Shown here: positions 10,883-49,300 of the stretch, piece by piece | Layout: every line of letters begins with the position of its first letter | Position numbering within the stretch: position 1 is the first letter of the stretch | IMG/VR virus record: IMGVR_UViG_2882178878_000003 | Location: 21,909-85,908 of that record | Source: a virus | Lineage: Duplodnaviria; Caudoviricetes | DNA length: 64,000 nt | Direction: 5' to 3' (one strand) | The notes under the pieces: generated by a model | Told to the model about the DNA's origin: nothing | Seen by the model: the letters and a program-made list of their open reading frames with translations, nothing else | The model's database searches: none | Translations under genes and position numbers: made by a program

Positions 10883-11000
10883 TCCTAATAAATCATGCAG
10901 GATTGTGTTGGAAAGTGGGAGGCGCTGATTGATGAAACAATCGGCACTGAATTCTTAAGGCTCACTACAGTGGGCTTTTTGTTGCAGTAAAAAGCCTGAA

Positions 11001-11645
11001 TTAATCAGGCTGATTGTAGTTACTTGTTGATGGCTTTAATGTCCATCGCTTCCATGCTTTTGCTTTGCCTGCCTTGACATTAAGCAACCCGGCTGTAGCG
11101 TTGCAGTATTCTCCGCCCGTACCGCGCTTGCCGCCTGTGCGCTTAAATACGGTGTCAGCAGGGGCAAATAAATGTGGGTTTTGGCGTACAAACTCATATA
11201 GATTTTTAAACTTGTACTCGGTGCCATCTGGTGAGATAAGCCACCAGTCTACTGCCTGCACATTAGACGCAAACTTGCCAGCAAGTGGACTAAGTTTAGC
11301 GGCCTCAGTTGCCATAATCTGGCCTGCATTGCTGTGTGGTGCACACTGCGGCTTTTTGGTGCCGATGTCCTTGCGTTTTGCCTTGCTGGCTGCTGCTGGT
11401 GCGCCAAGCTCCCAGCGTTTTTTGGCTACTGTGTCGTAAGCCAGTCCAAGATCACGGGCCAGCTCAGTATTGTTTTTTGACCAGTCTGCCTGTGACCAAT
11501 CCACTTTGCGCGGCTTTGGTTTAACTGTCTTGCCAAGCTTGGCGCGGTAGGTGTAGATCGTATGCAGCTTAACGCCCATCTTTGCTGCTATTACATCGTT
11601 GGGCTGGCTCCAGTCAATCGCCAGCCAGTCAGATTTACTTGCCAT
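11001..11645 (-). CDS. Tandem-HTH DNA-binding protein, third gene of the acr-like operon
   Basis: Two DWS..N..(I/L)A..(M/L)G HTH-like repeats; C-terminal WWLISPDGTEYKFKNLYEFVR module; very basic. Confidence 0.6.
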   Translation of the reverse strand: MASKSDWLAIDWSQPNDVIAAKMGVKLHTIYTYRAKLGKTVKPKPRKVDWSQADWSKNNTELARDLGLAYDTVAKKRWELGAPAAASKAKRKDIGTKKPQCAPHSNAGQIMATEAAKLSPLAGKFASNVQAVDWWLISPDGTEYKFKNLYEFVRQNPHLFAPADTVFKRTGGKRGTGGEYCNATAGLLNVKAGKAKAWKRWTLKPSTSNYNQPD

Positions 11646-11658
11646 AAATACCGTCAAC

Positions 11659-12159
11659 TTAAATGTTTTTTAGTGCATAGCGCGGATGCTGACCACAGGA
11701 CAATAAAAACATGCCCCAGGTGGTCGGGTGTGGTCGTTGCTCCCCCTTTTCCCAGCGCTGCCAGTTTGAGATATTAACGCCTGCTAACTTGGCGCATTTA
11801 GCCTGAGTGCCGACTTGTTTGCGCAAGTCTTTTATTTGCTCGGGTGTGGGTGGCTCAACGGGCACGTTATCCCATATTTGCACAGGCTGGTTGTACTCAG
11901 CTGCGACTGCATTAAACATGCGCTCGGCGGCCATATCTTTGTCACCACCATTGGTCAGGTGCGCTTGATACCATGTAGCGATTAACGCGCCCACATTGTC
12001 GGGGTTGGCAAAAATAGCGCGGTCAAGCTGGTTGTGGTCTGCCAGCTCATGGATTGCTGACCAGTTAAATTGCACGTGGCCGGTGTCCTGATCGTGCCAT
12101 AAGCCTAAATCAGCAAAATCCAGATTGTCCGGCACGCTAATTTGTTTTTGTTGTTGCAT
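11659..12159 (-). CDS. AcrIC6-like domain fused to a C-terminal XRE HTH (Acr-Aca-like fusion)
   Basis: The N-terminal ~90 aa align with the AcrIC6 C-terminal domain as recalled (MQQQ, PD..F.DL.L..D.D.G.V.F.W, DNV..LI..WYQAH...GG). C-terminal PTPEQIKDLRKQVGTQAKCAKLAGVNISNWQRWEKG is an HTH. A GGAG RBS precedes the ATG at 12159. Confidence 0.6.
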   Translation of the reverse strand: MQQQKQISVPDNLDFADLGLWHDQDTGHVQFNWSAIHELADHNQLDRAIFANPDNVGALIATWYQAHLTNGGDKDMAAERMFNAVAAEYNQPVQIWDNVPVEPPTPEQIKDLRKQVGTQAKCAKLAGVNISNWQRWEKGEQRPHPTTWGMFLLSCGQHPRYALKNI

Positions 12160-12203
12160 AGGTTGCTCCAAAAGATAAGCCCCATTGCTGGGGCCTTGTT
12201 GGT

Positions 12204-12470
12204 TTATAGGACTTCGATTGATTCAGGGTTGTCCCAGTCCAGGTTGTCGTCTTCCAGGCGGCCATCTTTGTAATTTTTAAATAACCAGGTTACGCGGTAT
12301 TCATTGCCATCTTTGTCGGTTGCTAGGGCGCTAAACTCATCCCAGTACATTTCACATTCTTCACCGTCTACTTCTTCAGTCCAGCTATCGTTAAACCAGC
12401 CTGCAAATACGCGGTTGGTGCGCTCAGCTTGGTCGGTAAAGGTTAGGTCATTGATAGTAATTGCGTTCAT
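12204..12470 (-). CDS. Small acidic Trp-rich protein; candidate anti-CRISPR/anti-defence protein
   Basis: 88 aa with 23 D/E, 7 K/R and 5 W; first gene after a strong promoter with an operator; GGAG RBS. Confidence 0.6.
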   Translation of the reverse strand: MNAITINDLTFTDQAERTNRVFAGWFNDSWTEEVDGEECEMYWDEFSALATDKDGNEYRVTWLFKNYKDGRLEDDNLDWDNPESIEVL

Positions 12471-12535
12471 TTTGATTCTCCGCCCGTGTAATGCGCTGGG
12501 CTTGCGCCGACTGCGTTATCGCTGTCTATGTAGCT

Positions 12536-12564
12536 ATATTACCGCGAATTGCGGTAAGCGTCAA
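12536..12564 (-). promoter_or_regulatory. Near-consensus sigma70 promoter with internal palindromic operator
   Basis: TTGACG (12559-12564), 17 bp, TAATAT (12536-12541). Perfect inverted repeat TTACCGC-GAATT-GCGGTAA at 12539-12557. Confidence 0.85.
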
Positions 12565-12589
12565 CACCTATATTTAATTATTTACTACC

Positions 12590-12620
12590 GTTCGTCGGAT
12601 TTGATCTGATGGGCTTTTTT
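12590..12620 (+). terminator. G-U-rich hairpin plus T6 (plus-strand only)
   Basis: 11-bp stem containing four G-U pairs, 3-nt loop, then TTTTTT. Confidence 0.45.
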
Positions 12621-12651
12621 GTCGCACTTGCATGAGTGTGTGGATTGGAAG
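12621..12651 (+). CRISPR. Solitary type I-C CRISPR repeat-like unit (not an array)
   Basis: GTCGCACTTGCATGAGTGTGTGGATTGGAAG matches the recalled I-C repeat GTCGCACTCTTCATGGGTGCGTGGATTGAAAT at 26/32 positions with one gap. The 7-bp stem CGCACTT/GAGTGTG is retained. Confidence 0.6.
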
Positions 12652-12655
12652 AACA

Positions 12656-12697
12656 CCCCTGTAAGGTTCGACACCTCCATTCCTATTGCCTGATTAT
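12656..12697 (+). promoter_or_regulatory. Late promoter motif copy 1 (terS)
   Basis: CCCCTGTAAGG at 12656-12666; TCGACA at +2; GATTAT at +26. Confidence 0.75.
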
Positions 12698-12720: not shown

Positions 12721-13419
12721 ATGGCAGACGACAAAACCACAGACTGGAAAAAGATTGAGCTGGATTATCGCGCTGGCGTTAAAAGCTTGCGTCAGATTGC
12801 CAGTGAAAATGGTATTTCGGATACCGCCATTCGGAAGCGAGCCAAAAAGGATGAATGGACTCGTGATTTATCAGCACGTATTCAAGCTAAAGCAGATGAT
12901 CTGGTTCGCAAGGATCAAGTTCGCGCTGAGGTTCGCACAAGAACCACTGTTTCAGAGCGTGAGATTGTTGAATCAAATGCTCAGGCTATTGCTACTATCC
13001 AGCTTAACCACAGGAAAGACATTCAACGTTCCAGAAACATAGCCATGAATCTTATGGCTGAACTTGAGCAGCAATCTGGCCTTGATAACGCTGATTTGCT
13101 TGAGCAGCTTGGCGACTTGATGCGCAATGAGGATGACAAAGGGCAGGATAAATTAAACGATTTGTACTGCAAGATTATTTCTCTACCTGGTCGCGCTAAA
13201 ACCATGAAGGATCTGGGCGAATCATTACGGGTTCTGATTGGCCTTGAGCGCCAGGCATTTAATATGGATTCTGCCAATATCAATGATTCAGTTGCTGGTG
13301 GTACTGGCAAGCAAATGTCAGATGCTGAAAGGGCTGTTCGCCTATCACGCTTACTTCAATCCAATCCGGATGCATACCAAGCATTATTGGCGTTAAGAAA
13401 TGGTGGCAGTAATGGCTAA
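12721..13419 (+). CDS. Terminase small subunit (probable)
   Basis: N-terminal HTH (DWKKIELDYRAGVKSLRQIASENGISDTAIRKRAKK); directly upstream of terL. Confidence 0.75.
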   Translation: MADDKTTDWKKIELDYRAGVKSLRQIASENGISDTAIRKRAKKDEWTRDLSARIQAKADDLVRKDQVRAEVRTRTTVSEREIVESNAQAIATIQLNHRKDIQRSRNIAMNLMAELEQQSGLDNADLLEQLGDLMRNEDDKGQDKLNDLYCKIISLPGRAKTMKDLGESLRVLIGLERQAFNMDSANINDSVAGGTGKQMSDAERAVRLSRLLQSNPDAYQALLALRNGGSNG

Positions 13420-14973: not shown

Positions 14974-17226
14974 ATGCAGACCGTCGAAGAAAGCACTGCA
15001 CCCGTAATGCCGCAGTCAGATGATGTGCTAAGCCAGTATGAATATGCTGAAATCATTGGTGAGATTGAAGAACAGCCAGCCTGGCGCCGTGTGGCTGATA
15101 AGGAAATGGATTATGCCGATGGTAACCAGCTCAATGGTGAACTGCTGAGCCGCATGGCTGAATTGGGCATTCCGCCTGCGGTTGAGGATCTGATTGGTCC
15201 GGCACTGTTATCAATTCAGGGTTATGAATCCAAAACCCGGACAGACTGGCGTGTGACCCCTAACAATGGAAGCGACGGTCAGGACGTCGCAGACGCTTTA
15301 AACTTTAAGCTCAATCAGGCTGAGCGTGAATCTAAAGCAGATATGGCCTGTGGCAAAGCATTTAGGCCACAGATTGGTTGTGGCGTTGGCTTTGTAGAAG
15401 TATCAAAGGATTCTGACCCGTTTAAGTTTCCATACCGCTGTATGGCTGTGCATCGCAACGAGATCCACTGGGATATGAAAGCGATTGAGCCAGATTTATC
15501 TGATGCGCGCTGGTTGCGTCGTCGTCGCTGGTTGCATCCAAATCGGGTGAAGCTGGTATTCCCACAGCATGCTGAGCTGATTGATAACTGTGGTAAGCAT
15601 GGCGGTTCATGGTGGAGTGATGAAACCATCAATGAAGGTGGTGTCAGTACTGGCTTGCAGAACGCATGGAATGAAGCACGTGCATGGACACAGCAGGAAG
15701 ATTACTGGTACAACCCGGCTACCAAGGAAGTCTGCTTATCTGAACTCTGGTACCGTCGGTGGGTTCAGGTGCACGTCTTAAAAACATCAGATGGCCGTGT
15801 GGTTGAATATGATGAGGATAATGTGGCGCATAATCTGGCCATTGCCAGTGGTAAGGCCGAAGTACAGCTGGCGACTGTGACCCGTGTGCGTCGTGCTTAC
15901 TGGCTTGGCGGTCATTGCCTGTTTGATGGTCCAAGCCCATACACGCACCGGCATTTTCCCTATGTGCCGTTTTGGGGATTCCGTGAGGATAATACCGGCG
16001 TGCCATATGGCTATGTGCGCGGCATGAAATATGCGCAAGATAGTTTGAACAGCAGTATCAGTAAGTTGCGCTGGGGCATGAGTGTGACCCGGATTGAGCG
16101 CACCAAGGGCGCAGTTGATATGACTGACGCCCAGTTGCGTCGTCAGGTTGCAAGGCCTGATGCAGATATTGTACTGAACGCCAGCAAGATGGCTGAGCCT
16201 GGTGCACGCTTTGACGTCAAGCGCGACTACAACCTCACCGACCAGCATTACCAGATGCTCAATGACAACCGCAGTACCATTCAGCGCGTGAGCGCAGTCA
16301 CCAGCGGCTTTATGGGTAAGGAAGGCACTGCACGCTCAGGATTGCAGGAACAAACGCAGGTTGAACAGTCGAATCAGTCACTGGCCAGCGTCATGGACAA
16401 TTTCCGCTTTGGCCGTAGCCTGGTGGGTGAATTACTGCTGGCCATGATCATTGCAGACATGGGCAATAAAACACAAAGTATCGTAATTACTGGTGATGCG
16501 ATCCGGCCAGAACGCACCGTAGTGATCAATAAGCCGGAAGTTGATGAGCAGGGTTATCCATATCTATCCAATGACCTGCAGCGTACACGCCTGAAAGTTG
16601 CCCTTGAAGATGTACCAAGCACCAACAGCTATCGTGGCCAGCAGCTTAATGCCATGTCCGAAGCGGTTAAATCCATGCCGCCACAATACCAGGCTGCTGT
16701 TCTGCCATTCCTTGTATCACTTATGGACGTTCCATTTAAACAGGAAGTGGTTGAAGCAATTCGTGCCGTGGATCAACAACAGACACCAGAAGCCTTCAAT
16801 GAAGCGGTACAAAAAGGCATTGAGGAAGCGATGGTTAAGGCTGCCCATGATCTTAAACTGCGTGAGCTTGAGCTTAAAGAGCGTGTGGCGGAAAGCGAAA
16901 TTAAAGGTTTGGATGCCAAGGCAGTACAGATTGGTGTGCAGGCTGCGTTCTCTGCCATGCAAGGCGGTGCTCAGGTTGCGCAGATGCCGATGATTGCACC
17001 GATTGCTGATGAGATTATGAAAGGTGCAGGCTATAAAAAGCCTAACCCAATGGGTGATGATCCGAGTTTCCCAATGCCGCAGAATGTACCTGTGCCTACT
17101 GGCCAGCCCGCATTAACTGATGTGCATAAAAATACCAGCCCTACCTTTCCACCAGTGCCAAGTGATGGTGTATCATCTATGAGTGGGATTGAAACAGCCA
17201 GTGCCGCTGATAATTTACCAGCCTAA
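14974..17226 (+). CDS. Portal protein (podovirus type)
   Basis: 750 aa directly after terL; HRHFPYVPFWGFR..GVPYGYVRGMKYAQD..N motif. Confidence 0.85.
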   Translation: MQTVEESTAPVMPQSDDVLSQYEYAEIIGEIEEQPAWRRVADKEMDYADGNQLNGELLSRMAELGIPPAVEDLIGPALLSIQGYESKTRTDWRVTPNNGSDGQDVADALNFKLNQAERESKADMACGKAFRPQIGCGVGFVEVSKDSDPFKFPYRCMAVHRNEIHWDMKAIEPDLSDARWLRRRRWLHPNRVKLVFPQHAELIDNCGKHGGSWWSDETINEGGVSTGLQNAWNEARAWTQQEDYWYNPATKEVCLSELWYRRWVQVHVLKTSDGRVVEYDEDNVAHNLAIASGKAEVQLATVTRVRRAYWLGGHCLFDGPSPYTHRHFPYVPFWGFREDNTGVPYGYVRGMKYAQDSLNSSISKLRWGMSVTRIERTKGAVDMTDAQLRRQVARPDADIVLNASKMAEPGARFDVKRDYNLTDQHYQMLNDNRSTIQRVSAVTSGFMGKEGTARSGLQEQTQVEQSNQSLASVMDNFRFGRSLVGELLLAMIIADMGNKTQSIVITGDAIRPERTVVINKPEVDEQGYPYLSNDLQRTRLKVALEDVPSTNSYRGQQLNAMSEAVKSMPPQYQAAVLPFLVSLMDVPFKQEVVEAIRAVDQQQTPEAFNEAVQKGIEEAMVKAAHDLKLRELELKERVAESEIKGLDAKAVQIGVQAAFSAMQGGAQVAQMPMIAPIADEIMKGAGYKKPNPMGDDPSFPMPQNVPVPTGQPALTDVHKNTSPTFPPVPSDGVSSMSGIETASAADNLPA

Positions 17227-37182: not shown

Positions 37183-40100
37183 ACATGACATTGTTTATTC
37201 CAAACATGAAAGCCATGGATGAGTCGATTGATCAAGTTAACGACAAAATGAAATATTTTGAGGGGAAGGCAAATAGCTTTTCGGCCGCCCTTGCCAAAGA
37301 ACTAAGTAATATTTCAAATATCCAGTTTGATGAGATTGGCGATGCACCTTCGCTCACTCCAAATAATGGCCTTGATTCCCTGAGTCCAGTGGTTCTCCCG
37401 GAGCTTTCTGCGCCCGACATTGCACCCCCTGTGCTTGACCGACAGGATGTGGTTGCATTATCAACACCCGCGCCGCTTGATATTGCGCCACTAAATCTAA
37501 CTATTGAGCAGCCCGTATTGCCCAATCTGGATAATACATTTAATCCGGTAAGTTACACGCCGATTGATGACATTAATCGGATTCAGGCACCTGAAATAAT
37601 TGGCGACATCAAAGCTCCAGTAATGGAGTTGCCAGACTTAAAATCCCCACAAGCACCCGCTCTTGTCAATAAGCCAACTATTAATCTAGATATCGCTGCA
37701 CCCGTATTGCCCAATCTGGATAATGCATTTAATCCTGTTGGCTACACAGCCATTAGTGATATCGCTGGCCTGGAAGCGCCAAGAATTGACACGGAAATTA
37801 AGGGAAGTCATCTAGAGTTGCCGGAATTCAAGACGACACAAGCACCTGCACCACTACAAAGACCAAATGTTAATCTGGATATTGATATCCCAGTGTTACC
37901 TGATCTTCCTAGTCAATTTGCAGAAGTAGCTGAGGATTTTAGCTATGATGCACCATCCATTGAATTTGACACTATTCCTGCCCCACTTAATGACGATGTG
38001 AATTTTACCAGTAAGTTGCCCACACTGGATATTTCAAATTTGATGGGTGCACTGGATTTTACCCTGCCTGACATGCCGGACGTGCCAGTTGGTTTTGATA
38101 TTGCGATGCCAGCTGTGCCAGATATTAATACAGGATCTGCGCCTTTAGCTCCGGCCATTGATACAACCATTAATCTGCCCAGCGCACCTGAACTCAACCT
38201 ACCTGAAATGGAGGCACTTGAGGCAATTGAGTTACCCTCTTTTGAGTTTGAGGGAGTGCCTGAGTTTGATGAGGAAGCACCTGTCTTTGAGATTGATGCA
38301 TCTGTATTTAGTGATATTGACCAGGCGCTGACTGATGCGGTTGAGGTACTATCCAAAGACTACTTTGAGCACAATAAAGATTCAGTCATTAGTCCGTTGA
38401 TGACTGAGATTAAAAATTGGCTTGAAGGTGGTCACCCGGGAACAGGATTGCCTGCATCTGTGGAATCCGCATTATTCAACCGGGCTGTTGACCGCGAAAG
38501 CCAGCAAACCAGACGTGCAGTAAGTGAAGCTGTTAATGAGTGGGCAGCACGTGGTTTCTCTATGCCGCAGGGAATGTTGCAAAAGCAGATTAGCGCTATC
38601 CGTGATGACGCCAGATTAAAATCGGCTGACTTAAACCGTGAAATTATGGTGCAGTCGTTTGACAAGCAGCTTGAACATATTCGCTTCTTAACCACCCAAG
38701 GTATGGCGCTGGAAAAAATGCGTATTGATTTGTGGACTGCCTACACAGCCAACATGATGCAAGTGGTGCAGCTTCAAGTAGAAAGCAAGATAAATATGTT
38801 AAATGCACAAATCAGTTTATTCAATGCTCAAGCCAGTGCATTTGAAACACTGGTGACGATATATAAAACCAAAATCGAAGGAGCAATTGCCAAAATTACA
38901 GCGTATAAAGCGCAGGTTGATGCACAAATGGCAATTGGGCAAATCAACCAGCAAAAAATAGAGATATTCAAAGGCAAAATCGAAGTGGTATTGGCCAATG
39001 TGGACGTTTACAAAGCTTTGATCCAGGGTGAAAGCGCTCGGTCTGATGCGATTAGGAATCAGATTGATGTTTATAAAACTGAAGTATCTGCATATGCCGA
39101 GGAGATGTCCGCCCAAAAGGCCAGAATTGATATTTTTAATGCTCAGGTCAATGCAGAAACTGCCAGAGTGGGCATGTTTGAATCAATATCAAGAAACTAT
39201 GCCACAACTATCCAGGGAATTGGTGTGCAAGCTGATGTCAAGAATAAGCAGCAGGGGCTAATTATGGAGGAGGCGCGGCTAAAATTACAGGAATTTAGCG
39301 CACTCATGGATCTTGAAAAGTCGGAAATATCAACCCGACTGGCGATTGCCCAGAACAATACCAATAATTTTGTCAGGCAGGTCGAGTGGGTTAAGGCGGT
39401 TAGCGATCAAAAGTCAAGGAAGGCCGATCTTGAAATGAAGTCACTGGATGCCAAGCAGCGTACAGTCATTGCCAATGCTGATTTACGCGGCAAGTACGCG
39501 GATATCAATTCTAGAATTATTCTTGCCAATGCAGACATGCAGGGCAAGTACATGGATATTAAGTCGCGTTCTGCAATGGCCAAGCTTGATAGTGAAATGA
39601 AGTACGTCGATATCCAGTCACGTATTGATCTGAGTAACGCTGAAATTGAGGCGAAATATGCAGGCATGGATGTACAGGTCAAGACAGCCAAGCTGGATGC
39701 AGACAGTAAAGCACTGGATGCACAAATCAGGGTGGCTACGGCTAATGCTGATTTACAATCTCGTCACTTGGATAATCTGACTAAAGTTGGGATTGCCAAT
39801 GCCGATGCAAACATCAAAGTCAGTATGGCCAACGCAGAAATGCAGGGTAAATATGCAGATATCAATTCCAGAATGGTGATTTCAGGGGCAGAGTTGCAGG
39901 GCAGGTTTGCCGAGATTCAATCAAGAGTAGCAATGGCCAAGCTTGATAGTGAAATGAAGTACGTCGATATCCAGTCACGTATTGATCTGAGTAACGCCGA
40001 GATTGCAGCCAAGTATGCCGATATGGATATCAAGGCTAAAACTGCCAAGCTGGATGCTGATGGCAAGGTATTGGAGGCCAATGTACGCATTGCAACTGCC

Positions 40101-43339: not shown

Positions 43340-46300
43340 ATGTCTGATTCTAAAATTGACTGGAGCAAGGGCACTTTAACTCAACCAGCAAACCCCGAAA
43401 ATAATAATGAAGCCATTGATTGGAATAACGGCACTTTAACCCATCCTGATGAGATCCCAGTAAAAAAGAATAAGGGTATAGTTGGTCATCTTCAAGATAC
43501 TGCCGCTTCCCTTGCTTCGGGTCTGGCATCAGTGCCAGATATGGCTGTTGGCGTTGCCGATATGTACACCGAAGGGCGTGCAGGCAAGGCAATAGATGAT
43601 ACTGGCGTTTATAAAATGGGTGAAGCCAGTAAATACTGGCAGGACAAAAAAACCGATATTGCCAAAGAACAGGATATAACCCGCCAAAGCACCGAGGGGA
43701 TCTGGAACAAAACCAAATATGTTTTGGAAAACCCCTCACAAATTACCAATGCAGTAGTGGAGTCAGCACCTTCAATTCTGGCAGGTGGGGTTGCCGGGCG
43801 CATATCCAAAATTGCCAATCCGTTGGTGGCTGGTGCAGTTGGCGAAGGGATAGTGGGCGCCGGTGCACAGGCCGAAAATATCCGGCAACAAACCAATGAC
43901 GGCTTGCTGGATAATGGCCAGCAAGCCGCTGCTGCGGGAACTGGCGCTTTAACGTCCCTGTTTAGCATGGCTGGCGGTAAGCTGGCGCAAAAAATGGGGA
44001 TTGGTGATGTTGATACTTTGCTAACCCGAGGTCATGCCACACCAGCACAAGTTGCAGGTGAAATCGCATCCATGCCTGCAAAGAGTTTACCGCGTAAAGT
44101 GATTGAAGGTGCAATCTCAGAAGGCTTTTTGGAAGAATTGCCGCAGTCAGTATCTGAGCAGATCATTCAAAATCTGGCACTAGATAAGCCATGGCATGAA
44201 GGGGTTGAAGATGCTGCCGTCATGGGAACACTGGCAGGCATGGCAATGGGTGGCGGTATCGCACCTTTCCATGGCAACCCACCCACCAGCCCATCTGGAC
44301 AGGACAATAGTCTGCCACCTGAAAACCCTAATAATCCATTAGCACCATTACCAGCACCAGCAGGAAATGATCTTGGCAGCACCCCCATGGAAGGTGAATA
44401 TATTCCCAGGCCCAATAGCCAAGATCCAGCACAGGCGGGGCGCACACCAGAAACGGTAGACGGAACAGCAACAGAATGGTTTGACCGTGAGCGCCTGCAA
44501 AATGCACCAGCCAATACCTCACCTGATTTACTGACTGGTATTGAAAACCAGCCTGAGGCATTTGATGCACCAGCAAATCCAGCCTTGCCAGCCCCATCAA
44601 TTGAGCCAGCCAAACCCTCAGAACAATTAGGCCTTGACCCCAATGCAGGTTCACTATCCGCTGCTGCTGCTTTGGCCGTAGATAGTGGCGCTTCACCACA
44701 TATTACTAACCCAGATACAGCAATCAATCAGGTGGATGAGTCGGCACAGGCAGCGGGTGATCTCACAAAACCACGCACCACTGCTGATGACATCAAGAAT
44801 GGCTTTAACGCTTTGGCTGGTGGCGCTGTTGATGCCATGGTGGAACGCACCAGTGATTTATTGCAAGCGGGGCAAGATGTAACCTTTTACAAGCCTGATT
44901 CCATTGCCAGCGCCCTGCAAAATCCCAACTATCATGTACAGCAAAATGAGGACGGTTCAGCAACAGTGCTAGGCGCACTTGATCCACGCACGAATGAATG
45001 GATAGGTCAGGCACCAGCCCAGCCAGATACATCACAACAAATTACCCCAGCGGATAATGGTCAGGACATTAATACTTCTCGACAGCGCAGCAATACGAAC
45101 CGAACTAACGAGCAGGTAATGGATGATGCATTGGCTGCGGTGCAACGAACCAAAGATAAATTAAATGATCCTTCTCGCTATCCTGAACTGCATACCGAGC
45201 AAGCAATCAATGAGCGCAAGGACTATGAACTGCCCGGTGGCTATGTACGCTCGCTTGCAGATCAGCTATCTAGTGGTGAGGCAGTTGAGGCGAATAATAG
45301 CCGCCGCGCCAATATATTTTTAAATAATCCAAATTTTAATGCTGCCAAGAATGAAGATGGCGTAGTAGCTGTTCTAGGGATTAAGCATCCTGATACCGGT
45401 GAATGGGTAGGTCGGGCACCCGAGCAGACCACCACAAGCAATCCGGCTGCTGCAGCGCAATCACCAGCAGCACAGGAGCAATCCCCGCAAGCACCAACAC
45501 TCACCAGCGAATACGCCCCCGGTTCTGTACCGCATGCGCGTGATATTGCCACACAAGCATTAGAGCAATACAGCGGCGATACCACAGGTTTAACTGACAA
45601 AGGCCAGTCATTAACCAGCCATAGCCCTGCTGCTGATCTTATTTACTACAAAAATTCCCCATCCTTTAGCAATGTAGAAGTGCAGGATGCTGGTGATAAG
45701 GCAGTCGTGCAACTAACCAATGCCAAAACCGGTGCAGTTGAAACCCGTGACTATCCGCAAAGTCTGGTTGGCTTTAATCAGTTTTTAGATGGCGGTCAGG
45801 CTGAAACTACCCCCGCACAGGCAAGCAGTGCAACTACTGCACAGCCAACAGAAAGCAATCAGGTTGAGCAGCTAGAACAGCAGCTTGCTGATACTAAAAA
45901 CGTGGCGCAAAAGGCACAGCTACGCAAACAGATTAATGAATTAAAGGTACAGCAGGGTGAGCAGGCTGCACCGGTACTTGGTGCTGATGGCAATAATAAA
46001 TGGTTTGGAAGCCAGCAAAAGGCACAAGGCTTTATTGATAAAAATAAACTTGATGATACTCACCAGGTTGTACAGACTGAAAAGAACCGTTTTGAGATTC
46101 AGCCTAAACAGCCTGCTACGCAGAACGTACAAGATGCGCCGCAGAGTGTAGAGCCAGCAGTACAACAGCAAAATGCAGAAGTACCAAACCCGTATAAAGA
46201 GAATCAATTACGGGCCAATGTGCGAAACATTAACACCCAGGTAAGCAGCAATGCGAAAGATGCTACTACAAGACCACAAGCCTTTAACCAGGAAGTGCAG

Positions 46301-49300
46301 AAGCAATACCCAGGTCTATATGCACGCGCAGAAGCATTAGCTAAAACAGCAAAGACCACGCCAGCAGGCCGCCGTGGTAATACTCAATTTTCAAGTCTAA
46401 GTTTTGATGGTGATAAAACATATCAATCTGGCGACCCGTACCCAAAAAAGCCAACAAAAGACGAAGTTTTACAGCAAGCAATCTGGCATCTGTCACAAGA
46501 TGATAAAAACAATGAATCTCATGCTTGGGATAATTTAGATGAACAGCAAAAAACCGAAGTTTTAAAGCGTGCTGGTTGGAAAACTAACGCAGGCGGCCTA
46601 AATGTTATCGGTAAGAAATTACTGAAACAAAATTCTACTGCTGTTAATACTGAAACAATGAAAATCATTGAACGCAATATGCCTGGGAACCAGGGAGTAC
46701 AGCAGCAGTCAGTCAAGCCAGCATCTACCGATGCCAAGTCGATGACAGAAGCCGAATTTGATCAGGCTATGAACAGCGAGGCTGGTGCAAGGTCATTAGT
46801 CGATAAGGGTATCAGTGCCGGGTTATTCACCCAGCAGGATATAGATACCGTTACCAATGGAAACTTTGCAGCAGGCTGGACACAGCTAGACCAAAACGAC
46901 AGTCTTAAGTCCCTGTTTAAATCCAAAGGGCTGATTCAAGGGCAGGCACAGCAACCCGCCCAACAAGGTACAGCTAAACCCAAGACCGTCACCACCTCAT
47001 CTGGCAAACAGATTGAGGTGCGCTTCAAGGTGGTGGAGGCATCAGAGCTTGGCACGTCACACACTGGCAATGGTGCAATCAATCCGGCATACCCACAGGA
47101 ATTACAGCCGCGTGACCGTTCACGTTCAGCATCCATCAACCAGATTAATGACATTGCCGCCAACCTAAACCCGCACATGCTTGGCGATAGCCCCACGGTG
47201 ACTGATGGCGCCCCAATTGTATCGAGTGACAATATCGTAGAAAGCGGCAACGGACGCACCCTGGCAATTACCAAAGCCTACCAGACTGGACGCGGCGAAG
47301 CATACAGACAGCATTTGCGTGATGCGGGTTATGACGTTAACGGTATGCAGCAGCCGGTGCTGGTGCGCGAGCGCGTCACTCCCATGACCATGCAGGAGCG
47401 TATTGAGTACACCGGCGAAGCCAATCAGCGCAACACATTGGGGTTAAGCGTATCTGAGCAAGCCGAACAGGATGCCAAGAAGTTAAGCAGCCGTGTGACC
47501 AGCCTGTATCGCGGCGGGGATATTAATTCACCCACCAATACGCCATTCATTAAGGCGCTGATGAATGAAGTGGTACCGCAGTCCGAGCATGGCAACATGC
47601 AACAAAAGGACGGACAGCTATCACAAGATGGTAGGCGTCGGATTCAAGCGGCGCTACTGCAAAAAGCCTACGGCGATTCTGCCTTAGTGACCGAAGTATT
47701 TGAAAGCACTGATACCGAGATTGCTTCCATTGGTAAAGCCTTGCTGGATGTGGCCGGCGAATGGGCATTGATGCGTGATGGCGTGCAAAATGGCGAGCTG
47801 CTACAGGACGTTGATGTTACCGCTAACCTGATGGAGGCAGTGCGTATTGTGCAAAAAGCGCGAGCCGAGCGCCGTTCAATTGCCGAAGTAGCAAGACAGG
47901 ATGATATATTTAGTGGCACTATTGACCCGGTAACAGAGGGCTGGTTGTCGGTATTTTATCGGGGCGATCATTTCAACAGAGCCAGAAGCCGCGAGAAGGT
48001 ATCAGGTGCTCTGTCTTATTATGTAGGTCAGGCCAGCCTATCAACCAAGGGTGAGAATCTGCTGGGTGAAACCGCCCCCGGTGGACGTGAAATTTTAGGA
48101 GCGACCAATGAGCGAACCAGAAAGCAAGAACAAGACACGCAACAAGACATCTTCAGCAGCCCGCGAGCTAATGAATCGAACCCTGCTGAATCTGGCAGAG
48201 CAGGACAAGGACGTACCACTGAAAAACAGAATGAAGAAGCAGCTAAGCCAGAAGTAGGGCGGGAAAAATCTGATGTTCAGGTAATGTCAGAAAATAAAGG
48301 GGATATTGCAGAGGATATTGCCAGAGAAATCCAGCGCGTCAATCGGCTAAAGCAGTCGATAAGAAAGCAAGGCAAGCAAACATCATTACAAGCAGACAGA
48401 AGTAAAGTAGCTAAAAAGTGGGGGTTAAATCCTGTAGGTTGGGGTAAGTTCGATATTGTTTTTGGTGCAGCAGTATTAGCTGACGTGGCTGCTGGCTTTG
48501 ATTCAAATGCGAGTTTTGAGCAGTTAAAGGCTGCTGCAATCAAAAAAATTGATGAGCTTGTTGAAGCTAAAGCAAAAGAGGGAGTCGCCGTTAAAGCGCC
48601 CGATACACATGCAGGCGTTAGTCCTGCCTCATTTAAGGCACTGCAAGACTTGCGACTGGCACCGCACCCTAAAACCCTCGAGGGACTGCTGGAACAGTAT
48701 GAACAAACTCGTGATGCTGCCAATCAGATAGCCGCCGAAGCCACTGATCCGGCAGTAAGCAAGGCGTATAGACAGCAAGCCGATATGTATGAGGCAGAAG
48801 CTCGAATCGTAAGGAGTGAGCTGGGCACAAAAAAACAGGAACAAACTGAAAACAGTAAGCCAGACCTGGTAGAAGAAATCCAGTCGATGAGCCTGGATGA
48901 TATTTCTGCCTTGTTTGATGAAGTGGCGCAGGAAAATAACGCGGTTGAAACCAGTAAGCCAAAAGCTAAACGTAGCACTAAAGGCAAAACTGCTACAGGC
49001 AAACCACGGCCAAAGCCAAAGGAAGCCCAAGCTGAAAAGATTGATCCTGAAAACAAAGAGGACACCAAGCGTACCGCAAGCGCGATTGCAAAAGACATTG
49101 GTGCAAACCTAAGTGACGCTGGTTTAAATGCGCTGGATGGCTTAGCCAAGCTGTTTGGTGGCAATGGCAAGATGAATAGCGGCCTATCATTTGATGAGGA
49201 CACCTACGCCAAAGCCAAGCCGCATTTTGTGCAATCAGCCAAAAGCACCATTGAGGCAGGCAAGAACCTAAAAGACTTAATCCGCGCCCTGATTAATGCG

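Follow-up and report, generated by a model that had tools for sequence, protein, structure and literature searches.

The stretch of prophage DNA analysed here (64,000 nucleotides, hereafter the window) carries, beside an operon of anti-CRISPR architecture, one solitary unit that, to judge from its sequence and predicted fold, is a real but diverged type I-C CRISPR repeat. The reading preferred here, and held tentatively, is that this repeat was captured from a type I-C array and works as a decoy of the RNA anti-CRISPR (Racr) type. The argument starts from features that were observed directly, namely the identity and geometry of the repeat, its subtype match to the only CRISPR-Cas system of the host, the targeting of the prophage by that system and the acr-aca architecture of the adjoining operon. 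Transcription of the unit, its binding and cleavage by Cas5c and the inhibition of type I-C activity are predicted from these features.

Sequence, fold and identity of the solitary repeat unit

The unit lies in a 250-nt gap between a minus-strand operon and the terminase small subunit gene (terS), in a region that holds replication, terminase and portal genes.

12621-12651, plus strand: solitary type I-C repeat-like unit (SRU), a single intergenic unit of 31 nt

The RNA of the unit is predicted to fold into a 2-nt overhang, a 7-bp stem that includes two G-U pairs, a 4-nt loop and an 11-nt tail, with a free energy of -7.0 kcal/mol, which is weaker than the value of -10.6 kcal/mol for the host repeat hairpin. 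The complement of the same stretch gave no fold. The tail starts with UGG and ends in GGAAG where GAAAC is canonical. Three bases are altered at columns that are invariant across 11 array repeats of the family: a C to T change in the stem, which yields a G-U pair, and an A to G and a C to G change in the tail, these last two lying in the 11-nt handle. In its layout the unit departs from a canonical I-C repeat solely by the tetraloop, and genuine 31-nt tetraloop I-C repeats are present in arrays from the same bacterial family as the host. Cas5c chiefly reads the base of the stem and the adjoining UGG, and tolerates variation in the loop and the 5' overhang (PMC8524198). In silico, the unit retains these determinants, that is, the 7-bp stem, the stem base and the UGG.

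Comparison with real repeats showed 23/32 identical positions with the main host repeat and 26 with the distal variant of the host repeat, while between 24 and 28 of the 31 bases are identical in genuine Bacillota I-C array repeats that have the same stem. The match of 26/32 given in an earlier note on this DNA is fair in view of these values. That note had described a solitary I-C repeat with its 7-bp stem preserved through G-U pairs, and both points were upheld by the analysis: the unit is single, intergenic, on the plus strand and non-random, and the computed fold contains the stem. Its two caveats also stand, in that a T6 tract precedes the unit and the tail ends in GGAAG. With a match to a known repeat, an intergenic position on a mobile element and no neighbouring full or partial repeat, the unit corresponds to a solitary repeat unit as defined for SRUFinder (PMC10651486).

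A search of the 64-kb window at up to 3 mismatches returned one copy of the unit. Neither this search nor a covariance model found a second unit or an array in the window, as the earlier note had stated, and no degenerate repeat was seen one spacer length from the unit on either side. Assignment as a CRISPR array or mini-array, which takes at least two repeats with an intervening spacer, was rejected. A permissive Rfam scan of the 2 kb around the unit yielded chance hits only and no CRISPR-DR family.

That the unit resembles an I-C repeat by chance is barely conceivable. A geometry score that had been set beforehand (13 overhang bases plus 7 stem pairs, with a loop of 4 or 5; maximum 20) reached at least 18/20 outside the array at 3 sites in the whole 3.06-Mb genome, a search space of 6.1 Mb. 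One of these is the phage unit, the second a CreR-like pseudo-repeat within the cas locus and the third a chance hit; only the first two have a stem that begins with the invariant CGC. The estimated number of chance hits per 64-kb window is ~0.005 without the CGC criterion and ~1e-4 with it, and the extent of base identity to real array repeats likewise argues against chance. The covariance model built from the 11 family array repeats was less favourable, scoring the unit at 14.4 bits (E of ~0.1 per window), and it scored an unrelated 10-nt handle match in the portal gene slightly higher. The low score of the unit arises because the model penalizes the three changes at invariant columns.

The portal-gene sequence ATGAGTGGGATTGAAAC (window 17179-17195), which lies in the last codons of that gene, resembles the 3' half of an I-C repeat. 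Its handle-like 10-mer (17186-17195) is an exact 10-nt match to the handle, has no stem and sits 40 nt before a late box. As a candidate second repeat, this 10-mer was judged to be a chance occurrence, given its lack of a stem, its position in coding sequence and the ~0.12 such matches expected per window.

The host type I-C system and the adjoining operon

The window corresponds to positions 21911-85910 of contig C77 of the host assembly (G000), and the CRISPR-Cas locus lies on contig C12 of the same genome. This contig carries an intact cas3-cas5c-cas8c-cas7-cas4-cas1-cas2 set, in which each gene scored above the type I-C model cut-off where one exists, and an array of 61 repeats (60 spacers) downstream of cas2. 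The genome contains a single Cas1 locus, and its sole CRISPR-Cas system is of type I-C, the subtype of the unit. Comparison with the repeats and cas subtype of the host, which the earlier note had proposed as a check, thus revealed one system, type I-C and intact, that targets the prophage.

This targeting is extensive. Five of the 60 host spacers match the window perfectly, and 6 more match with one or two mismatches. All 11 protospacers in the window have a 5' TTC PAM and lie on the same (minus) strand. The perfect matches, and one near match located inside terS, are as follows.

49139-49173, minus strand: protospacer of host spacer 1 (leader-proximal), perfect, TTC PAM
47207-47239, minus strand: protospacer of host spacer 6, perfect, TTC PAM
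38999-39029, minus strand: protospacer of host spacer 28, perfect, TTC PAM
45476-45508, minus strand: protospacer of host spacer 45, perfect, TTC PAM
39923-39955, minus strand: protospacer of host spacer 46, perfect, TTC PAM
13293-13326: protospacer of host spacer 50, inside the terS gene, one mismatch, TTC PAM

Given five perfect and six near protospacers with a TTC PAM, some inhibitor of the I-C system must therefore act, as spacers of this kind should be lethal to a lysogen in which I-C interference is not blocked. This argument is weaker if the assembly represents a population bin rather than a clone.

The placement of all eleven protospacers (window 13293-49173) on the minus strand has a chance of ~0.1% if strands are random, and the newest host spacer is among the perfect-match set. 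The single-strand protospacers and the perfect newest spacer suggest that spacers against this phage family were gained by primed acquisition. For host spacer 46 there are two matching sites, separated by 357 nt: the match is perfect at 39923-39955 and covers the first 26 nt of the spacer at 39566-39598. The phage sequence is therefore repeated internally there, within or between genes.

To the left of the unit lies a minus-strand operon of three genes, encoding proteins of 88, 170 and 218 aa.

12536-12564, minus strand: operon promoter, TTGACG and TAATAT with a 17-nt spacer, conserved in related loci L025, L026, L027, L017, L061 and L063
12539-12557, palindromic: operator, a perfect 19-bp palindrome (TTACCGC-N5-GCGGTAA) inside the promoter, covering most of the spacer and overlapping the -10
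12204-12470, minus strand: operon gene 1, an 88-aa acidic, Trp-rich protein of no known family, Acr candidate
11659-12171, minus strand: operon gene 2, a 170-aa protein with an N-terminal domain (residues 1-100) and an Aca10-like HTH (residues 107-159)
11001-11657, minus strand: operon gene 3, 218 aa, weak HTH hits only
11011-10993, minus strand: terminator

The distance from the unit to the -35 of this divergent promoter is 57 bp, in agreement with the earlier note. The HTH of the 170-aa protein has Aca10 (PDB 7XI5), which represses the acrIC7-acrIC6-aca10 operon (PMC9410881), as its closest match in sequence and fold. A phmmer search against this entry gave E 4.8e-8. The best Foldseek match of the 170-aa structure model was also to this protein (7xi5_A, TM 0.87 by target, 41% identity), with the model being of modest confidence (pLDDT 64) and the HTH half alone finding a match. 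The locus thus has an Aca10-homologous HTH together with a palindromic operator that overlaps a strong promoter and is conserved in relatives, where the operator half-sites are retained; these are features of an Aca10-type acr-aca operon.

Three homologues of the 170-aa protein (87, 79 and 72% identity) are encoded downstream of the same promoter, operator and 5' leader. The first genes of these three loci encode 104, 102 and 121 aa, respectively, and have only the first six codons in common with the 88-aa gene. At the level of sequence comparison, this replacement of the first gene between relatives is the cassette-swapping pattern of acr loci. The earlier note had placed the unit beside an operon of anti-CRISPR architecture, and the variable first gene, the Aca10-like HTH and the palindromic operator in the promoter bear this out.

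The promoter, the operator, a long 5' leader and the first six codons (MNAITI) are conserved at the DNA level (window 12471-12590; the six related loci named above) despite the unrelated first genes. In several loci with this promoter module, a plus-strand terminator is directed away from the operon, formed by another hairpin in L027 and L063. A terminator that points away from the operon possibly serves a short divergent or antisense RNA.

The 88-aa protein had no match in Pfam, PHROGs, NCBIfam, PDB or the Atlas, and a single distant homologue was found for it. For residues 1-100 of the 170-aa protein, the searches likewise gave no matching family, structure, Atlas cluster or fold. This N-terminal domain is conserved across five homologues, with invariant NGG, AERM and EPPTPEQI motifs, and could be an inhibitor domain or a sensor.

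Transcription context, relatives and competing readings

If a plus-strand RNA were to cross the unit, the host Cas5c would be expected to recognize its stem-loop and UGG. Cas5c and Cas7 would then be tied up on an RNA that is unable to form a working Cascade, the predicted defects of this RNA being the single repeat, the want of a defined spacer length and the two altered handle bases, which might prevent assembly of the complete complex. As the I-C nuclease remains on the downstream handle, the sequestering product may be the RNA 3' of the cut. The decoy effect would add to that of the protein inhibitor or inhibitors expected from the adjoining operon, and the combination of RNA and protein would allow the prophage to persist despite the five perfectly matching spacers of its host. 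Clustering with acr genes and a subtype match to the host are known for Racrs, among them an I-C example that has been validated (PMC10651486). The canonical geometry, the Cas5c determinants, the position close to an acr-type -35 and the swapped first gene make the decoy reading plausible.

Whether such an RNA is produced depends on the signals that flank the unit.

12590-12620, plus strand: intrinsic-terminator-like hairpin with T6 (T6 = 12615-12620), 11 pairs, -12.2 kcal/mol, z -3.8, ending where the unit starts
12656-12666, plus strand: late-promoter box CCCCTGTAAGG, 4 nt after the unit
12668-12697, plus strand: terS late-promoter hexamers, TCGACA and GATTAT with an 18-nt spacer, downstream of the unit
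12721-13419, plus strand: terminase small subunit gene (terS)

The terminator-like hairpin folds on the plus strand only. In L025 it is retained through three changes, all of them pair-preserving in plus-strand RNA, which supports a role in plus-strand RNA, namely predicted termination just before the unit. The earlier note had taken the strand-specific fold to imply transcription of the unit; the fold was reproduced, and the implied transcription was not sustained, since the hairpin and its T6 end at the start of the unit. A separate terminator, near 10959-10985, serves the early rightward operon. No plus-strand sigma-70-like promoter was found by strict and relaxed consensus scans of positions 12471-12625 or in the 240 nt upstream of the unit, with the qualification that such scans can miss an unusual promoter. 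A sense promoter within ~250 bp upstream, a feature used to select Racr candidates, was accordingly lacking in these scans. No plus-strand promoter uses the Aca operator, and the suggestion that the unit might share that operator with the operon was not supported.

The late box CCCCTGTAAGG is present as nine exact plus-strand copies in the window, against approximately one expected. All but the last lie 55-72 nt before a start codon, often after a terminator, and are followed by a -35-like TGAC; the box is probably the binding site of a late-gene activator. The nine boxes (CCCCTGTARGG, plus strand) begin at window positions 12656, 17235, 19490, 20095, 20786, 25392, 40794, 43274 and 58287. The unit lies outside the late transcript. 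It is situated between a terminator and the next promoter, and sense transcription could therefore occur only by read-through, from which the dose of the decoy RNA may be low or limited to a stage.

Relatives were compared on both sides of the unit. In L025, the left flank is shared up to and including the T6 and then runs directly into a ribosome-binding site and start codon. In L012, the late box and terS are shared and coding sequence extends up to the box; the genome that L012 comes from is 80% complete and yielded no I-C repeats. The unit is absent from both, and conservation of the unit in related prophages, which the earlier note had named as a check, was thus not seen where either flank is common. 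The relatives compared are distant and none has both modules adjacent; therefore, the absence means that the unit belongs to neither module, and does not mean a lack of function. On these comparisons, the unit is lineage-specific junction material between two mosaic modules.

Wider searches gave a similar picture. The unit was not found in the other loci with the acr promoter module, in nine IMG/VR terS relatives or in 400 genomes of the host family, where arrays occurred in about a dozen genomes and solitary hits at the rate of a reversed-pattern control. Exact and degenerate patterns of the unit had 0 hits in IMG/VR, and the stem pattern in 185,579 species genomes returned genuine Bacillota arrays and a few single hits. 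Searches of a phage database by blastn and tblastn gave distant terS matches only. The conserved acr promoter pattern had 0 hits in IMG/VR and 3 among metagenome loci, none with the unit, and the sequence of the unit is absent from the supplements of the Racr paper (PMC10651486). Two single hits were set aside: a solitary hit with a similar tail in host-family genome G091 lies on the chromosome across a gene start and lacks a stem, and the only covariance-model hit over 26 related loci (L028) is a coincidence in coding sequence.

The absence of a promoter, the upstream terminator, the three changes at invariant positions, the weaker hairpin and the absence from relatives that share a flank tell against the decoy reading, and the protein genes next door could alone explain survival of the lysogen. 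A silent relic is nearly as likely as a working decoy. The unit would then be a captured I-C repeat, or what is left of a phage mini-array or Racr gene after its collapse, that is now untranscribed, decaying junction DNA, with protection afforded by the operon protein or proteins. Such decay would account for a position between a terminator and the next promoter, the changes at family-invariant positions, the weak covariance-model score and a location at the exact junction of two mosaic modules. The intact stem is itself weak evidence of selection, as one stem substitution separates the unit from natural repeats with the same stem. However, a functionless 31-nt insert in the compact gap of a phage should be lost or degraded, whereas the unit still has its seven stem pairs, its UGG and the full 11-nt length of its tail. 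Furthermore, a location within 60 bp of an acr-type promoter, on a self-targeted prophage in an I-C host, is the setting reported for working Racrs.

An element that acts at the level of DNA is very unlikely. The unit precedes the inferred late start by ~50-85 nt, lies immediately ahead of the activator box and marks the exact junction of two modules, as might an upstream element of the terS promoter, a scar of recombination with a CRISPR array or an off-target site of the Cas1-Cas2 integrase. However, none of the eight other late promoters has a similar upstream sequence, and L012 has the same box and terS without the unit. Homologous recombination would need longer identical stretches than the 7 and 8 nt shared with the host repeat, no leader-like sequence is present, and the G-U pairs render the fold specific to one strand, which is what an RNA structure would be expected to show.

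It is highly improbable that the unit and the sequence downstream of it form a guide of the Cracr type, which would steer host Cascade to a cas or toxin promoter or to a phage late promoter and repress it without cleavage. Viral single-repeat crRNA-like anti-CRISPRs exist, including ones for type I-C (bioRxiv 10.1101/2024.10.29.618823), and the host itself provides an example of a lone repeat that can give a usable guide in this system. The host element, a pseudo-repeat with the exact 11-nt handle, is located between cas3 and cas5c (G000:C12:16563-16594, equivalent to L010:11563-11594, minus strand). Its pseudo-spacer runs into the start of cas5c, and its sole TTC-flanked target genome-wide, matched at 13/14 positions, lies ~50 nt upstream in the same region (G000:C12:16641). 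By its sequence, this element is taken to be a CreR-type cas autorepression element, a known kind. RNAs of the CreR type, which regulate cas genes, are reportedly the subject of work by the Li laboratory.

When the pseudo-spacer of the phage unit was searched with a TTC PAM and no more than 2 mismatches in the first 14 nt, no target was found anywhere in the host genome, the prophage being part of the search. As a positive control, the one target of the host CreR-like element was recovered in the same way. A match of at least 9 PAM-proximal nt, with PAM, to a cas or creT promoter was likewise not found in the host genome. The phage pseudo-spacer is unlike the host CreR pseudo-spacer or any cas sequence, and is accounted for by the late box, one of nine copies. 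The other eight boxes are without seed and PAM; this, together with the lack of a TTC-flanked target, disposes of the alternative raised in the earlier note that the unit yields a guide against the terS late promoter.

In relation to the properties expected of a Racr, the sequence analysis therefore points to a decoy by subtype match, structure and acr neighbourhood, and away from one by the lack of a promoter. The earlier note had proposed a paired attack on type I-C by protein and RNA. The solitary unit, the acr-type operon and the match to the host I-C system are in keeping with this proposal; a plus-strand promoter and conservation in relatives were not found. In a more specific and unlikely version of the decoy reading, the unit is a gated Racr with an altered handle, silent behind the terminator in the lysogen and made upon read-through, for example early in induction or infection. 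Cas5c would cut this RNA and remain bound to the altered handle, which would form the 5' end of a product extending into the late leader. There it would seed dead-end Cas5c-Cas7 filaments, and it would also relieve the CreR-type autorepression of the host. If true, the gated Racr would be the first I-C decoy to act via its downstream product, with a dose set by termination and not by a promoter.

Comparison with known RNA and protein anti-CRISPR systems

The closest parallel to a decoy is RacrIC1 of a Bifidobacterium pseudocatenulatum prophage (PMC10651486), which is also a solitary I-C repeat on a prophage that matches the host subtype, forms a stem-loop and has acr-type neighbours. RacrIC1 follows acrIC5 at a distance of 11 nt and shares its transcript from the acr promoter, whereas the unit described here is divergent, behind a terminator and without a detectable promoter. 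The handle of the unit is, unlike that of RacrIC1, changed at two family-invariant positions, and its activity is putative, whereas that of RacrIC1 has been demonstrated. RacrIF1 of a Pectobacterium atrosepticum prophage (PMC10651486), for which the mechanism has been established, shares the decoy logic, in which the nuclease and Cas7 are sequestered on an RNA that is unable to form full Cascade. In RacrIF1, a strong promoter drives the RNA, and the inhibitory part is the piece 5' of the cut, which Cas6f retains. By contrast, the I-C Cas5c stays with the downstream handle (PMC8524198), and the active product of the unit could be the downstream RNA.

Viral Cracr RNAs (Liu et al., bioRxiv 10.1101/2024.10.29.618823) resemble the unit in that one phage pseudo-repeat can suffice and in that I-C cases are known, often beside acr genes. 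Their defining feature, partial PAM-proximal complementarity to a cas/creT promoter, is not found in the unit. The host CreR-like element has the same single-repeat layout but is chromosomal, with a target in its own promoter region and a canonical handle; the unit has neither of these. Identification of the unit as a Cracr or as a mini-array was rejected, there being no target for the former and no second repeat for the latter.

The operon is best compared with acrIC7-acrIC6-aca10 of Pseudomonas citronellolis (PMC9410881; PMC7913775), to which it is related by the Aca10-like HTH (41% identity over 54 residues) and by the 19-bp palindromic operator over the promoter core, where a bound regulator would block RNA polymerase. 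Unlike the situation in P. citronellolis, the HTH here makes up the C-terminal half of a 170-aa protein, and no match was found for the first 100 residues of that protein. The operator sequence also differs, and the upstream genes are, as far as compared, unrelated to named Acr proteins.

The principle is not new, as RNA anti-CRISPRs, and the fact that they cluster with acr genes, have been on record since 2023. The present locus adds a caution, in that a repeat match beside acr genes does not alone show a Racr, because the unit here sits in a transcriptional dead zone. What it brings together in one genome is an intact I-C system, a CreR-like autoregulator, 11 spacers against the resident prophage (5 of them perfect), an Aca10-type operon with candidate inhibitors and a lone I-C repeat. 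Operon and repeat form a testable pair, in which the cooperation of protein and RNA, the handle positions tolerated by Cas5c and the response of the cas autoregulatory loop to inhibition can be addressed.
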